Source: a virus. Taken from it: DNA of 64,000 nucleotides. This document shows, piece by piece, positions 33,358 through 60,189 of this stretch. The first letter of the stretch is position 1; each line of letters starts with the position of its first letter. Both the position numbers and the translations under genes were made by a program. The stretch is from the IMG/VR virus record IMGVR_UViG_3300049846_002130, positions 64,001 through 128,000 of that record. The stretch is one strand, 5' to 3'. The notes beneath the pieces are model-generated. The model searched no databases. It was not told the DNA's origin and saw nothing but the letters and a program-made list of their open reading frames with translations.

Positions 33358-34230
33358 CTATCTCCATTTAGTAATTGGAATCATTAGACTTGGTATTGCT
33401 GTGTAGTTTGTCTGTACTACTTCTAAACAATTAAGTACTGCAAATTGTATTGCGTCACAGATTGTTAAGTAGTCAATTTCTTTTACTTTAGATTGTGTTA
33501 GGTATGTAGCAATTGCTGCAGTAAAACAATCTCCCGCCCCTGTGGCATCTACTACTTTTACTGCAGGTACATGAGTAATTACAACAGTGTTTTGACTTGC
33601 ATCTAGAAGACGTATTGCTTCTGGTCCATTTGTATGGATAGTCCAGTCGAATTTTCTACCGTAATTTTCATCATATTCTTGACCTGTAGCATGCCATATG
33701 GTTGTGTCTGCAATAGCCAAGAGTTTATCGGGTACAGAACGATATCTGGAGTCTACTATGGTAGCAGTTATTTTCTTTTTAGAAATAAGATTAGTCCAGT
33801 GTGGGTTGCTAACTAATCTTTCTAGTGCACCTTTATTGTAATCGGATATAGCCAGAACTACTTCGTCTGTTGGTGAGAATGTCTGAATAGCTGAACAAAG
33901 ATTATTATGGTATTGGTCTATATAAGTTTCCCAATCCGACAGTCTTTCTAGAATTGAGAACTTATAATCCCATGGACTATATCGGATTCTCTTAAGCATC
34001 AAGCTTGCATTTCTAGCATCTGATAAAAACATCTGACTGAGGTAGTCAACATTAAGTGAGTTTTCAAATCCATTGAATCCTTCTAGCTTAGATACATACC
34101 TTAGAGTGGCGGTAGCCCCGCCGTCAAATGACTTAGAATCTACTAGCTCATAATGTTTTTTTAATTCTCTATATTCTTGGTGCATATCAATCAAGAAATC
34201 ACCAAGCACACCTACTACTTTGTTTTGCAT
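33358..34230 (-). CDS. PfkB-family sugar kinase, HldE domain I / HldA-like
   Basis: VGVLGDFLIDM, GGA, ISDYNKGAL, VVDATGAGDCFTA. Confidence 0.85.
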   Translation of the reverse strand: MQNKVVGVLGDFLIDMHQEYRELKKHYELVDSKSFDGGATATLRYVSKLEGFNGFENSLNVDYLSQMFLSDARNASLMLKRIRYSPWDYKFSILERLSDWETYIDQYHNNLCSAIQTFSPTDEVVLAISDYNKGALERLVSNPHWTNLISKKKITATIVDSRYRSVPDKLLAIADTTIWHATGQEYDENYGRKFDWTIHTNGPEAIRLLDASQNTVVITHVPAVKVVDATGAGDCFTAAIATYLTQSKVKEIDYLTICDAIQFAVLNCLEVVQTNYTAIPSLMIPITKWR

Positions 34231-35264
34231 TAAAGCCTCGTTGTTAATCCGTGTGGTTGAGCCTCTATAGCTCCATTAGCTGTAATTTTAATCCATTTTG
34301 TATTTTTATATATTTTTCTAGAGTCTTTAATATTCAAATAGGTGCAGGCTGATCTTAATCCGCCCTCAAACTTTTCAACTATTGATCTTACAGTTGTTCC
34401 ATCCCACATCGTTTCTGGATGTGAAACTCCTTCTGGACATGAGTTAATTTTTGAGTATTGGTCTTGTTGAAACTCAGCAGATGCCTGACCCCTATAAGAT
34501 TTGTAAAGCTTCCCGTCTCTTGGCATCCAGCCAGCAGCCTCTCTTGCCTTAGAAAAAACACTACCAAGCATAGCCCCGTCCGCGCCCAAGGCAAGGTACT
34601 TGACAACATCACCTGGATAACGAATACCACCATCAGCTATTAAGATAATATCCGAGGCAGACGCACTATCTAGAAAGCTTCTAATTTGAAATACAGCATA
34701 GGCATTGGGAACACCAACCCCAGTCATAAGTCTAGTTGTACACCCCGCCCCAGGACCAACTCCTACACGCAGATGTGTTGCACCTGCATTGACACAAGAC
34801 CTTGCTTGCTCGGCAGTACAAATAGAACCTGACATTATGTTCTTGAAGCCAAAGCGCTTCCATTTCTCAATAGCTTTTAATGCTTGGGTTGTAGTTCCGT
34901 TAGCAACATCAATTGCTATCCCAAACTTTTCTAGATCAATATTGGTAACCTTATGAAGGGGTAACGAGAACTTACCATCTAGTCCGGTGGCAAAGAAGAC
35001 TGGCTCTGATGCTGTGCCAATCTCATTAGCTAGTTTTACTGTCTTAATAATTTCTTCTCTAGGTATAAACCTACTAACAACAGGGTTGTGTCCGTACTTT
35101 ATAAGCACAGCTGTCATTGAAGAGCCTGTTACTGTATCCATAGGAGCCGACCACAAGAAATTATGGGTTCTAACATCTTGTCTGCTGTTGACATTACTAG
35201 GAACTGGAATCAAAGTAATATCGTCAACTGTAAATGCTGGTCCACTTGTATATGTTGAAATCAT
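34230..35264 (-). CDS. IMP dehydrogenase / GMP reductase family
   Basis: SAPMDTVT, RVGVGPGAGCTTR, IADGGIRYPGDVVKYLALGAD, YRGQAS; start moved to the ATG at 35264 (GAGG RBS, ATGA overlap). Confidence 0.93.
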   Translation of the reverse strand: MISTYTSGPAFTVDDITLIPVPSNVNSRQDVRTHNFLWSAPMDTVTGSSMTAVLIKYGHNPVVSRFIPREEIIKTVKLANEIGTASEPVFFATGLDGKFSLPLHKVTNIDLEKFGIAIDVANGTTTQALKAIEKWKRFGFKNIMSGSICTAEQARSCVNAGATHLRVGVGPGAGCTTRLMTGVGVPNAYAVFQIRSFLDSASASDIILIADGGIRYPGDVVKYLALGADGAMLGSVFSKAREAAGWMPRDGKLYKSYRGQASAEFQQDQYSKINSCPEGVSHPETMWDGTTVRSIVEKFEGGLRSACTYLNIKDSRKIYKNTKWIKITANGAIEAQPHGLTTRL

Positions 35265-35563
35265 CTGTAAACCTCTGTCGCTCTTTTCTTTAAAATCTTT
35301 AAGCCATTGTCCATATAGCATTCGTAGACATAGCCAATTTTAATATGGTCGATCTCATGTCCACTCAAGCCAAGTATTAGTTGTGGGAAGTCCATCAATA
35401 TTTCTGATGCATCTTCTAGGTTTAAATATGGACCAGCAGACAAAATTGAAGCTCCATTCGGAGCTTCAATTTCTAACTTAATTATAAAAAAGGTGTCTAA
35501 AGAATTTGTTTCTTGTTCTCGTCGTAGCAAACATTTCTCCACGAACAATTGGCACATCTCCAA
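35261..35563 (-). CDS. Hypothetical protein
   Basis: ORF fills the gap between the nuclease and IMPDH genes; start uncertain. Confidence 0.4.
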   Translation of the reverse strand: MEMCQLFVEKCLLRREQETNSLDTFFIIKLEIEAPNGASILSAGPYLNLEDASEILMDFPQLILGLSGHEIDHIKIGYVYECYMDNGLKILKKRATEVYR

Positions 35564-50154: not shown

Positions 50155-50389
50155 CGTTTTTCTCCATAAAAATTCTATATATATAGCCTAATCTAAAGGC
50201 TGTTGTGAACAGAACGCGAAAAGTCGAGTCTGAAAGATGCTGAGATAGAGCTTCTAAAGCTTTGTTAATAAATAGCTGTTGGTCTTCTTTCTCTGGATTA
50301 GCCATTAGTTTATTAAACAATAAGTCTACTAATTCTTTATTCGTGTATTTAGAAGTACCTGCTGAGGTTTTAACAGACCACATCACCAA
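50096..50389 (-). CDS. Hypothetical protein
   Basis: 97 aa ORF. Confidence 0.45.
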   Translation of the reverse strand: MVMWSVKTSAGTSKYTNKELVDLLFNKLMANPEKEDQQLFINKALEALSQHLSDSTFRVLFTTAFRLGYIYRIFMEKNDVTFESNSAQDTEFSSVSS

Positions 50390-50829
50390 CCTAACATCTT
50401 GGGTAAGGCTGTTCGTATAAGTATACCTAGGGCAGAGAACTCTCCCCCTGAGAGCGAAACTGTTATCATACGAGAGGTTCTATCAGCATCTGTTTGTCTG
50501 ATAGACATTAACCAAGTCCCAGCATACCGCTCATCTGTACTTTCCTTAAAAGAGATGGATTTAGTTGTTCCTTGGTACTCGTGAACAATCTTTGTTGTTT
50601 CTGGGTTTTCTAGTAAATGACAAAGATCTGCAGTACCTAATGCAATTGAAATTTTACCATCTTTCCAGTCGTATAGTTTATTTTCTCCATCTGTTCCAAC
50701 TACTTTTGCTGCTTCAACAAGAATTGCTCCTGCTTTATCCATCCAATCATTGTCTTTAGCTCTGGGAGCAAGAAATGAGAATTTGGCTGCAGCCGAGCCT
50801 TTAAAAATATCAAATGAGCCTGGCTTCAT
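50383..50829 (-). CDS. Whirly-like ssDNA-binding protein
   Basis: IFKGSAAA, GAILVEAA, YDW, ..H., EFSAL...LPKMLGW parallel the plant Whirly motifs YKGKAAL, GFVLLQFA, YDWS, FFHD, EFAVL...PYLLGW. Confidence 0.75.
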   Translation of the reverse strand: MKPGSFDIFKGSAAAKFSFLAPRAKDNDWMDKAGAILVEAAKVVGTDGENKLYDWKDGKISIALGTADLCHLLENPETTKIVHEYQGTTKSISFKESTDERYAGTWLMSIRQTDADRTSRMITVSLSGGEFSALGILIRTALPKMLGW

Positions 50830-51103: not shown

Positions 51104-51134
51104 AAAGTGGTCGGAGATTAACTCCGACCACTTT
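51104..51134 (-). terminator. Probable terminator closing the Ubl operon
   Basis: 13-bp perfect stem aaagtggtcggag/ctccgaccacttt overlapping the stop at 51118. Confidence 0.65.
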
Positions 51135-51291
51135 CTACCTGTATGTTCCAAGCTTTTAATCCTCTATAAACTTCATACATTTTTATATCAGGATTTTGTT
51201 TACATCTTTCGATGAAGCCAGGAACATTGGCTTTGATTTGAGATAAGGCTTCTTTACATTGCTTAGGGGAATATACTTCCGTCCCAAACAT
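51118..51291 (-). CDS. Small hypothetical protein coupled to Ubl
   Basis: ATG at 51291 overlaps the Ubl TAA (TAATG); 57 aa. Confidence 0.55.
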   Translation of the reverse strand: MFGTEVYSPKQCKEALSQIKANVPGFIERCKQNPDIKMYEVYRGLKAWNIQVESGRS

Positions 51292-51512
51292 TAGAAAGCG
51301 CCTTTGGATCCCTGGACTGCCCAAATCTCTTCTACGCCATCTACACAGGTAGTAGAGAACTCACTAGGAGCTACCTCAGTTTCGCCACCAAGAAGAATCT
51401 TATAGGTGCTATCGATCTGTAGGTGAGACACTACATCTTGAACGGTAGTGCCCTGGGTAACTTGGACTGTCTTGGTGTTCCCCGCGGGAACAAATAGTAC
51501 ATGAATTGTCAT
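51291..51512 (-). CDS. Ubiquitin-like (beta-grasp) protein
   Basis: 73 aa; TIHVLFV / TKTVQV / TVQDVVSHL / YKILLGG / EIWAV beta-grasp order; tail QGSKG-AF; adjacent to E1. Confidence 0.8.
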   Translation of the reverse strand: MTIHVLFVPAGNTKTVQVTQGTTVQDVVSHLQIDSTYKILLGGETEVAPSEFSTTCVDGVEEIWAVQGSKGAF

Positions 51513-52222
51513 TCTATCTCCTTTAAGTTGTATTGCTTTACAAATAGTTTACTATCTTTCATAACTGTAATTGTTCCATATGGATATTTAAAGGCACTAG
51601 TTGTTGCTTTAGCAACCAGTAGCGTACAAATATATTGTACCATATAGGCAGATATCGTAGTTACAAGAGTGGAACATAGACGCTGATTACAAGGGCCTTC
51701 TGGAATGAGGCTATCATCCATAAAGCTATCTGTCCACTGTCTATATAGTTCAGAGTTTAAAGGATTTATTACATGTATTTCTCCATGTTCAAATCCAAGG
51801 CGTGCTTCAATAGCTAACAGTATATTTGTGTTATACAAGATACCTTGTGATATATCTTTTCGACTCTTCATAGAGTCGGTAGCTATTATTAAAAAGCCCT
51901 CCACATGCGCAGCATCAGCTGCGCTAGTATAAAACCTATTATATGTTTTTACTTCTATGTCTGGATTAAATTCACGAAGCAACTCTGACAATGCTTCTAC
52001 TTTAGATTTTCCTATATGTTTGGGAAAGAACTGCTGATTTGCTAGATTATAGTCTTCAACAACATCTGCATCATAAAGAACAAACTTTTTAAATCCCATA
52101 CGGGCCGCGATCATAGCAACATTAGAGCCAACACCCCCACATCCAACAATAACTATTGGATGTGTTATCATATTTGGATGTAGCCATCCAGAATGTCTTA
52201 GAAATGATGGCTTATTCTCCAT
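51509..52222 (-). CDS. E1-like / ThiF-family adenylyltransferase
   Basis: IVGCGGVGS, YDADVVEDYNLANQ, GKSKVEAL, ATDSMKSR; candidate Cys in EGPCNQRLC. Confidence 0.92.
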   Translation of the reverse strand: MENKPSFLRHSGWLHPNMITHPIVIVGCGGVGSNVAMIAARMGFKKFVLYDADVVEDYNLANQQFFPKHIGKSKVEALSELLREFNPDIEVKTYNRFYTSAADAAHVEGFLIIATDSMKSRKDISQGILYNTNILLAIEARLGFEHGEIHVINPLNSELYRQWTDSFMDDSLIPEGPCNQRLCSTLVTTISAYMVQYICTLLVAKATTSAFKYPYGTITVMKDSKLFVKQYNLKEIE

Positions 52223-52733
52223 ACTCGATTCCTTTAAAGAGCATTAATAGTTCTTTTAATACTTTTACTTTTTCTGTAGAGCTAGATTCTTTAAATACGG
52301 AGTTATCAACAAGATATAATGTTGTAGCTAAAAGTAAAACTAATACATTTGCATCAACAGCAGTTGTAGAAAACATCTTAGTTATTTCTGATAAGCTTAC
52401 TGGCTCAAATATATCTTTTATTGGTACTTTCTTTTCTTTAGCCGAAGTAACTATACGATGAAGCCTTATTGTAATACCTAGCCATCGTAATGCTTTATTT
52501 CTATCAAGTCCCCAACCTTTCAATAACAAAAGGAATCTATCTAAATGAGTCTGGATAGATGAAGGAGTCATTGCTTCCACTAAGGATTCACCTGCTTCGA
52601 GTAGGTAGCTAAGTTTATATGGCTCGAAATCTGGTGACTCAATAATTTTAGTAATGAATTGATTTTTATTTATAAAGTCTATCTGTTGTTTATCAAATAG
52701 ATTTATAAATTTATAGTTACTTCGGCCTAGTGT
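52212..52733 (-). CDS. Helical domain, probably the -1 frameshift extension of the JAB protein
   Basis: Frame is open 51 codons upstream of the annotated GTG (52580), back to the G-GGA-AAA site at 52739-52733. Confidence 0.55.
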   Translation of the reverse strand, partial: TLGRSNYKFINLFDKQQIDFINKNQFITKIIESPDFEPYKLSYLLEAGESLVEAMTPSSIQTHLDRFLLLLKGWGLDRNKALRWLGITIRLHRIVTSAKEKKVPIKDIFEPVSLSEITKMFSTTAVDANVLVLLLATTLYLVDNSVFKESSSTEKVKVLKELLMLFKGIEYGE

Positions 52734-53467
52734 TTTCCCATATAGTGAAACACAAAATCAGTTTGATCAGTAGTCGTTGTAGTGTCTTTCGAGGTCGTCG
52801 TACCAGCATACACGCTCTGAGCTAAAGGGGCGGGTGGACTTCCTCCAGAAGTTACTGTAACTACAGAACTCTTTTTACTAACCAAAGAGCTGATAGCACT
52901 ATCTATTTTCTTATAGTTATAGCTGTTTTCAACAGCTATTGGAGGCTGCTCGATTATAATCCCATCTAGACTTGGATCAAAGACTCTGCAATAAATATCA
53001 CGTTTCTGATTAAAGATTAGCATTGCTTTTGGTGTAGTAGCATCTTTAATTAGAGCTGTCCAGTTTTCTTGATCAGTACCAGTAGGCTTTGCTTCCATAT
53101 TAACATGGGAATGGCACCAAGCTCCTGCCTCAGACATCAAAGTCTTAAGCTCCGTAGCAGTAAGATTACGGTCTTTCTTAAGTTGTTGCCACATCTCAGC
53201 TAAGTCTGCTGGCTCACTATCAACTGTTATTGTGGTAACAGTTTGCTTTGGTATAAAGATATCACTAATTCGATAAAATATCTTACCGTTTTGACGCTCT
53301 GAATAATCTGGTATTATTCTAGAGTACCACTGACCCTCAAACGTCTTAAGTTCATCTACAAAGTATTCGCTTAACTCTAAACATTCTTGATCAAAAACCA
53401 CATAATATTTATAAGCAGTAGTAAGAGTTGGAGTCCTTTCTGCTATTAGTTTCTTAGATAGTGTCAT
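52727..53467 (-). CDS. JAB/MPN+ metallo-isopeptidase
   Basis: FEGQW, ISDIFIPKQTV, WCHSHVNMEAKPTGTD (JAMM HxH-x7-S/T-x2-D). Confidence 0.88.
   Translation of the reverse strand: MTLSKKLIAERTPTLTTAYKYYVVFDQECLELSEYFVDELKTFEGQWYSRIIPDYSERQNGKIFYRISDIFIPKQTVTTITVDSEPADLAEMWQQLKKDRNLTATELKTLMSEAGAWCHSHVNMEAKPTGTDQENWTALIKDATTPKAMLIFNQKRDIYCRVFDPSLDGIIIEQPPIAVENSYNYKKIDSAISSLVSKKSSVVTVTSGGSPPAPLAQSVYAGTTTSKDTTTTTDQTDFVFHYMGKH
52733..52739 (-). promoter_or_regulatory. Candidate -1 ribosomal frameshift heptamer G GGA AAA
   Basis: X-XXY-YYZ in the correct frame, one sense codon before the JAB stop; -1 frame open for 173 codons. Confidence 0.6.
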
Positions 53468-55637: not shown

Positions 55638-55833
55638 CTATATCTATAGATATACCTATCGAATAGCAGATAGGACAAATATTACTTATATCGTCTCTAG
55701 TTGCTTTATAGCCACATTCTAATTCTGAACATATAAAGTACTTAGAAGCCAATTCCTGGTTTTCTGCTAGGGGTGGCTTTAGATTTTCTACTAATGACAA
55801 ATTCTTCATCCTTAGCAATATGTTTCTGTACAA
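55567..55833 (-). CDS. Zinc-ribbon protein
   Basis: CSELEC...CPIC; start uncertain. Confidence 0.5.
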   Translation of the reverse strand: MYRNILLRMKNLSLVENLKPPLAENQELASKYFICSELECGYKATRDDISNICPICYSIGISIDIDELINAPDGADVLEYIYEQMGFK

Positions 55834-59614: not shown

Positions 59615-59871
59615 TATCAGCCTCCAATAAGAATGAGTCTAACAAATTAGGTTAGCTTAGAAAAGACAAACTTTATAGTGCCTGCCACAGGATACTGTCT
59701 AACCCAGTATTGATAGAGTTGAACTATCCACTTATACGTACAAGGTATTAAATGTAATCTTTTCTACATTTAAACTCAAACTTATTATAGGTGGGTAAGG
59801 CATCGAGTTCAACGATGCTTTCTACTAGCTACAAGCTAATCTGGATTGTCTTCTTACACATACCCAAGTAA

Positions 59872-59953
59872 TTGGAGAGACTAGATTTGAACTAGTGAAC
59901 CTTTTGGGAACGGTTTTACAGACCGCATGCTTTAGCCTCTTGCATACTCTCCA
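59872..59953 (-). tRNA. tRNA-Tyr (GTA), long variable arm, no encoded CCA
   Basis: TGGAGAG TA TGC AAGAGGCTAAA GCA T GCGGT CTGTAAA ACCGT TCCCAAAAGGTTC ACTAG TTCAAAT CTAGT CTCTCCA A. Confidence 0.85.
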
Positions 59954-60115
59954 AAAAAACTAGTGTAGATAGATGCTCGGCTCAGCGAATAAACACCTTA
60001 AGTGATCAGACAAAAAGTTAATCATTCTTTTCAGCTTTGCTACAGGATGATCTTCCCAGCTGTAATTTCTTCTACCAACAGCTTTTTACACTAGAGCCCG
60101 GTACCAGGCTTTTAA

Positions 60116-60189
60116 TGGCCAAGGTAGGAGTCGAACCTACGACGCATAGCTCTTCGGGCTATCGCTCATACCAACTGAGCTACTCGGCC
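60116..60189 (-). tRNA. tRNA-Phe (GAA), no encoded CCA
   Basis: GGCCGAG TA GCTC AGTTGGTAT GAGC G ATAGC CCGAAGA GCTAT GCGTC GTAGG TTCGACT CCTAC CTTGGCC A. Confidence 0.9.

Follow-up and report, generated by a model that had tools for sequence, protein, structure and literature searches.

The closest mechanistic precedents for the arrangement described here are lambda G/GT and E. coli dnaX. Heptamers of the GGGAAAN type drive −1 shifts in phage tail-chaperone genes (G_GGA_AAG in lambda G/GT), and in dnaX a −1 shift on A_AAA_AAG, stimulated by a Shine–Dalgarno-like (SD-like) element and a hairpin, truncates the product, with one gene giving two isoforms (tau and gamma) that differ by their C-terminal domains. 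To our knowledge, the well-established cases of programmed frameshifting in phages come for the most part from tail chaperones and a small number of replication and transposase genes, and ubiquitin-like conjugation systems, only recently characterised in bacteria, are essentially unstudied in phages. Here we describe a 64,000-nucleotide (nt) stretch of an uncultured 183-kb phage (the window, bases 64001–128000 of the 183,528-bp IMG/VR virus record IMGVR_UViG_3300049846_002130, which has direct terminal repeats and is rated complete) in which the gene for a predicted JAB/MPN peptidase ends on a slippery heptamer and, judging from sequence comparison, very probably undergoes a programmed −1 ribosomal frameshift, giving a short JAB protein and a long protein in which JAB is joined to a helical domain.

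Relative to lambda G/GT, the heptamer is nearly the same (its last base is A, not G), lies likewise at the very end of the upstream gene and is conserved while the sequences diverge, and the shift would add a C-terminal domain, leaving short and long proteins with a shared N-terminus. The differences are that the gene encodes a JAB/MPN peptidase in a ubiquitin-like protein (Ubl) module rather than a tail chaperone, and that the two parts form one open reading frame (ORF) in distant relatives, which is atypical of G/GT. As in dnaX, one gene would give two isoforms differing by C-terminal domains, but here the shift would extend the product and no conserved stimulator was found in the lineages compared. 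With respect to its gene neighbourhood, the locus resembles BilC, CBASS Cap3 and BubCD (type I Bub), which share the MPN fold, the zinc motif and a gene position beside an E1 and a Ubl with a C-terminal extension. Bub operons encode BubE (DUF6527) and the fused BubAB and BubCD proteins (PMC11601596); DUF6527 had no hit among the nine neighbouring proteins scanned here. In contrast to these bacterial systems, the locus is phage-borne, its JAB protein would be fused to an unclassified helical domain instead of E1, and its E1 is a minimal ThiF of 237 amino acids (aa). From its sequences, the phage module would work like the Bil and Bub systems but does not appear to be a member of them, its ThiF being single-domain and its JAB protein unfused to E1.

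On the minus strand of the window, to which all coordinates refer, the JAB gene (52727..53467, ORF and translation, protein P0001) runs for 246 codons in the 0 frame and ends ...CAC TAT ATG GGA AAA CAC TAG, the last five codons being as an earlier note on this DNA had stated; the assembled letters over the shift site are GGGAAAAC. This end contains G_GGA_AAA as an in-frame X_XXY_YYZ heptamer (52733..52739), the proposed −1 shift site, and the 0-frame stop TAG (52727..52729) follows one codon after it. In the −1 frame, translation recovers the open run into the next ORF that the note had described, an extension of 173 codons plus a stop at 52214–52212 (52212..52733) that reads GK-TLGRSNYKF..., is open for 175 codons counting GK, would bring the conceptual long form to 418 aa, and overlaps the start of the ThiF gene by 11 nt. 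Measured from stop to stop, the −1 ORF opens just seven codons upstream of the heptamer, and its earliest ATG, GTG or TTG is the GTG at 52580–52578, 53 codons past the heptamer. The note was right that no such start codon lies before 52580, but it had also ruled out a ribosome-binding site and missed an SD-like AGGTGA (52593–52588) 8 nt upstream of the GTG, which makes this pair (52578..52593) a possible internal start for a 122-aa product. Its further remark that the 147-nt gap here is the only large one in the operon holds roughly, with another gap of 104 nt at 55638–55741.

Mechanistically, most ribosomes would stop at the TAG and release the 246-aa JAB-plus-linker protein, and a fraction would move back by one base on G_GGA_AAA, with the P-site Gly-tRNA re-pairing with GGG instead of GGA and the A-site Lys-tRNA again with AAA. 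The shifted ribosomes would read 173 more codons in the −1 frame, producing the 418-aa protein with the junction ...HYMGK-TLGRS.... We infer the slip, the fusion protein, the fixed ratio or efficiency at which it would be made, and the roles of the two forms.

Within the window, the −1 run at this site is exceptional. ORFs of 80 aa or longer contain 102 in-frame heptamers, whose median −1 run is 6 codons versus 173 here; runs longer than 173 codons are confined to spurious ORFs overlying real genes, and the long run at the JAB heptamer is the sole one in a genuine gene. A second heptamer with a long −1 run, T_TTA_AAG at 35293, was rejected, as it belongs to a spurious 100-aa ORF that spans an intergenic terminator and sits between a nuclease gene and a GMP-reductase-like gene. 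Read-through of the TAG under another genetic code was likewise rejected: the 0 frame meets a TAA seven codons on, and relatives carry TAA there.

Evolutionarily, the site can be followed through a close clade in which the JAB protein has three homologue clusters (60, 56 and 49% identity, all 243–252 aa). DNA was compared for three lineages represented by six independent assemblies, namely the window, L002, and a third lineage with L003, L008, L009 and L010; ThiF identity across these close lineages is 67/64%. All six assemblies read xxG GGA AAA Cxx TAR, with the stop position constant (CAC TAG in L002, CGT TAA in L003/L008). The codon before GGA is ATG (Met) in the window, TCG (Ser) in L002 and TTG (Leu) in L003/L008, its third base being always G, and a fourth lineage represented by protein only (P0006) has Thr at the residue before the heptamer glycine. 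In this phage TCG and TTG are rare codons, accounting for 6% of Ser and 10% of Leu, respectively. That the first G is kept through rare codons despite the Met/Ser/Leu change indicates that selection at the heptamer acts on the nucleotides more than on the encoded residue. In the −1 frame, the next two codons downstream, for Thr and Leu, differ only synonymously (ACA CTA to ACG TTA); read in the 0 frame, these substitutions replace His by Arg and TAG by TAA.

The same comparison bears on whether the split could be an assembly or sequencing error, or a decaying pseudogene, so that there is really a single true ORF or a dead second half. Such an artefact would fit the prevalence of single-ORF forms in the wider family (see below), yet the frame relation, the heptamer and the stop are the same in six independent assemblies from three diverged lineages, the site has no long homopolymer, and the −1 ORF stays intact at 20–43% identity and yields a confident domain model. 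We find error or decay hardly credible as a general explanation; it is contradicted for the window clade, and may apply only to the runs of nine adenines (A9) at which two more distant lineages, L013 and L015, are split. Transcriptional slippage, by which the polymerase would add one base at GGGAAAA in a fraction of the messenger RNAs, would have an identical protein outcome, and the A9 runs in the L013 and L015 overlaps are long enough for it. Efficient polymerase slippage needs runs of about 7–9 or more, however, and the window clade has runs of only G3 and A4; moreover, what is conserved is the 0-frame register of the heptamer, which is relevant to ribosomes and not to the polymerase. We therefore consider this explanation very improbable, and programmed ribosomal frameshifting remains the preferred reading.

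Beyond the heptamer, the −1 frame is open up to the ThiF start for 175 (window), 176 (L002) and 171 (L003/L008) codons. The earlier note had named conservation of the heptamer and of the open −1 frame as a check, and both are kept in 3/3 sequenced close-clade lineages. The first canonical −1 starts lie at +53 (window), +122 (L002) and +32 (L008; an ATG) codons, which are non-homologous positions, and no near-cognate start near the overlap is conserved in the close clade. Estimated from the base composition of the window, the chances of 53, 122 and 32 stop-free codons are ~0.03, 2e-4 and 0.1, and the rough joint chance of the three start-less open stretches, on the same basis, is ~1e-6. All gaps in the alignment of the three −1 products are in-frame, identity between lineages being 20–43%, and conservation over the first 33 codons past the heptamer is no lower than over the remainder (window vs L002 identity of 18/33 in these codons vs 27/121 further down). 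Copies from L003, L008, L009 and L010 are identical over the −1 ORF and are uninformative for a comparison of synonymous with non-synonymous changes.

These data also allow gene fission to be weighed, whereby the second half would be made by independent initiation only (GTG 52580, 122 aa) and the heptamer and the open upstream stretch would be ancestral leftovers. Fission can draw on the normal spacing of the SD-like AGGTGA before GTG 52580, on the separate genes that gene callers did predict (103 aa in the window, 139 aa in the L008 lineage), and on an ATG or GTG near the overlap in L013 and L015, but it must accommodate start positions that are non-homologous among the three lineages, an L002 start that would yield only 54 of 176 residues, and start-less parts that are open, protein-conserved from the first codon past the heptamer and modelled as ordered helices. 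A leftover heptamer, in addition, would not persist through rare codons across 40–50% protein divergence. On this evidence, fission appears improbable next to a programmed −1 shift. With regard to annotation, gene callers give the −1 ORF products of 54 aa in L002, 139 aa in the L008 lineage and 103 aa in the window, the last being protein P0003, a fragment called from an internal TTG; if the shift is real, this family is systematically mis-annotated. No further close relatives were found in IMG/VR and JGI metagenome contigs by protein, alignment or junction DNA pattern, and DNA and protein searches of GenBank phages returned no usable relative.

Structurally, the −1 product was modelled with AlphaFold2 from the three-lineage alignment as a single all-helical domain, with a mean predicted local distance difference test score (pLDDT) of 86.8 and a predicted template-modelling (TM) score of 0.85. 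Residues 11–55, which lie upstream of the GTG, are ordered in this model (pLDDT 81–93). The domain has no evident relative: a PDB Foldseek search gave nothing significant (best E = 0.33), the ESM Atlas gave nothing by shape (TM <= 0.40) and helical-repeat leads only by features (<= 0.88), and HMMER of the −1 product vs 1.8 billion representatives returned itself and two spurious long proteins only.

More distant homologues encode JAB and a C-terminal domain as one uninterrupted gene. A profile of the four short JAB proteins retrieved 13 homologue clusters of 377–440 aa at 28–36% identity, and ThiF-anchored look-ups added single ORFs of 470 and 363 aa, for a total of at least 15 (363–470 aa); a single ORF is the commonest state in the wider family. 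In four fetched loci, one ORF of 415, 440, 470 or 363 aa occupies the JAB slot, and the locus order is that of the window: a large gene, the JAB-plus-domain ORF, ThiF, a small Ubl-like gene, Whirly and SpoVG. The single-ORF size approximates the 246 + 173 codons of the window, so that these homologues, syntenic where checked, have about the size predicted for the fusion. In the model of the single-ORF protein P0018, an alpha/beta JAB domain (14–206) is followed by a disordered linker (213–256) and a helical domain (260–407), and in a MAFFT alignment the post-linker motif of single-ORF proteins (IVRAGRSMLGAE, IVKYGRTMLGAE, LVRAGRGLLSAG) aligns across the window shift site FVFHYMGK|TLGRS. A full-length single-ORF HMMER profile also aligns through the junction of the conceptual products; because its C-terminal-domain part alone is non-significant, this alignment is not counted as independent evidence. 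Under the frameshift reading, the long form would be the counterpart of the distant single-ORF protein, and the short form an extra product of the split arrangement.

As for stimulatory elements, the AT-rich hairpin that the earlier note placed after the site does exist (52668..52710, 22 nt past the heptamer), within a 146-nt fold of −23.2 kcal/mol (z = −3.4 vs shuffles), and a possible long-range stem of 52727–52719 with 52630–52621 encloses it. The corresponding z-scores are −1.2 for L002 and −2.3 for L008, the latter with a different shape, and the window alone clearly beats its shuffles; the hairpin is lineage-specific and, since it is not conserved in the relatives, is not an established stimulator. 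In each lineage an irregular AU-rich stem-loop is possible 5–12 nt past the heptamer, with differing shapes. Rfam gave no match, and no upstream SD-like stimulator motif was seen in the close-clade sequences. What is conserved near the heptamer is the 0-frame stop one codon on and a G+C-rich patch (GGCCGARG or GCCGGGCGAGC) ~5 nt past it.

Several observations weigh against a programmed frameshift into a homologous domain. Folding found no downstream stimulatory structure common to the three lineages, and heptamers of the form X_XXA_AAA are less slippery than X_XXA_AAG in E. coli. The GTG with its AGGTGA in the window and the ATG at +32 in L008 are plausible internal starts, so a free C-terminal fragment could arise alongside the fusion or in its place. 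Furthermore, the −1 product has no significant BLASTP match to the C-terminal domains of the single-ORF proteins, hhalign of the two gives a probability of 0.2%, and a hidden Markov model of the C-terminal domain alone reaches only E >= 0.4 for the split-lineage ORFs; the case for equating the domains is built on their position, size and architecture and on the short junction motif.

Splits of a related kind occur in L013 (246 + 162 aa as called) and L015 (305 + 194 aa), where the second ORF is again in the −1 frame and the overlaps (L013:2944-3034; L015:3816-3918) hold an A9 run that contains A_AAA_AAG and A_AAA_AAA, respectively; an ATG or GTG lies close to each overlap. Recoding by the ribosome or the polymerase could account for these splits, as could a homopolymer error in assembly, and they lend the frameshift reading weak support. 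For their part, all four single-ORF genes that could be read have, in the linker between the domains, a slippery heptamer in frame, after which the −1 frame continues for just 13–26 codons: G_GGA_AAA at codon 250 (L004:6001-7248), A_AAT_TTT at codon 243 (L006:6001-7323), A_AAA_AAA at codon 233 (L016:1620-3032) and A_AAA_AAG at codon 219-220 (L017:1909-3000). Lys-rich linkers in AT-rich genomes easily produce such heptamers. It is conceivable, if rather unlikely, that the whole JAB-linker-helical family uses linker slippage to make JAB-only and JAB-plus-domain isoforms, in which case the split lineages would shift to extend (on G_GGA_AAA, or on the A9 runs of L013 and L015) and in the single-ORF lineages the shift would truncate the product, as in dnaX tau/gamma.

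Functionally, the zinc motif and the fold of a homologue support assignment of the gene to the JAB/MPN+ (JAMM) peptidases. The 246-aa short product comprises a catalytic domain, a Ser/Thr/Gly-rich linker and a tail ...FVFHYMGKH, and its motif HSH-x7-T-x2-D (HSHVNMEAKPTGTD, residues 119–132) fits the JAMM pattern H-x-H-x7-S/T-x2-D, with H119, H121 and D132 invariant across the family alignments and the upstream Glu, E44 (EGQW), nearly invariant. Fold evidence comes from the model of the homologue P0018 (profile E = 9e-24 to the window clade) and not from the window protein: its N-terminal domain matches Rpn11 (5u4p, E = 5e-8), BubCD of Citrobacter (9ea4), AMSH and CSN5 in Foldseek, as well as a bacterial Ubl-deubiquitinase (8tyx among the hits), all at probability 1.00. 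Together, motif and family-member fold agree with the JAB identity given in the earlier note; Pfam and PDB sequence searches of the JAB protein gave no hit.

Peptidase and Ubl-processing activity can be predicted from context, by analogy, given the adjacent ThiF-type E1 (51509..52222, 237 aa, Pfam PF00899, E = 5e-28) and a 73-aa candidate Ubl (51291..51512, from translation) ending ...QGSKGAF. ThiF directly follows the gene for JAB and its C-terminal domain in every relative examined, and here it is translationally coupled to the end of the −1 ORF; a gene of 69–83 aa comes after ThiF in all relatives. At the C-terminus of the 73-aa protein the Gly is not exposed, and trimming would be needed before adenylation. 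This lack of an exposed C-terminal Gly fits a processing role of the JAB peptidase, of which the candidate Ubl is a likely substrate. Both forms of the peptidase would act in a phage ubiquitin-like module of E2-like protein, JAB, ThiF E1 and 73-aa Ubl, where, by analogy with the peptidases of Bil, Bub and CBASS (PMC11601596), the JAB domain would serve to trim the Ubl precursor (...GSKG/AF), to remove conjugates, or both. Docking or targeting is the probable contribution of the helical domain.

Genomically, the module lies in a window of 37% G+C whose genes abut, start with ATG in almost all cases and have GGAG-type ribosome-binding sites. The order on the minus strand is an AAA+ ATPase (57046–55742, 434 aa, PF00004, E = 6e-14), which heads the JAB gene run, then a 152-aa gene, a 566-aa gene, the JAB-like gene, the −1 stretch, the ThiF-type E1 and the 73-aa gene, with a terminator-like hairpin at 51134–51104 downstream of the last. 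The distant relatives L004 and L006, too, have an AAA+ gene upstream of their JAB module. Downstream of the module, a Whirly-family single-stranded-DNA-binding protein (50383–50829, PF08536, E = 8e-6) is conserved, and is followed by a SpoVG-like gene in most relatives examined and, in some, by a PhoH gene too. Elsewhere in the window, the phage carries an IMP dehydrogenase/GMP reductase family gene (34230–35321, PF00478, E = 7e-56), with a terminator-like hairpin ahead of it at ~35470–35440, and genes for tRNA-Tyr (GTA) and tRNA-Phe (GAA) at 59871–60189. No tRNA-Lys or tRNA-Gly relevant to slippage on GGA AAA was found in the window.

A full-text literature search brought up no report of frameshifting in a JAB gene, and the Bub account does not mention frameshifting (PMC11601596). 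The mechanism is a classic one (lambda G/GT, dnaX, IS3), and the gene family and the system are new for it, with the site placed in the peptidase of a phage-encoded ubiquitin-like conjugation module. If the frameshift is real, the public annotation of this family is in error, with fragments of 54, 103 or 139 aa standing in for the second ORF, and the peptidase would exist in two forms that differ by a domain without a known relative. Locking the frame either way would then separate the roles of the two forms, which offers a simple experimental handle. Should slippage extend to the whole family, the isoform ratio would balance Ubl maturation against deconjugation or targeting during infection. 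More broadly, a single-ORF gene and a frameshifted gene would be able to replace each other within one family.

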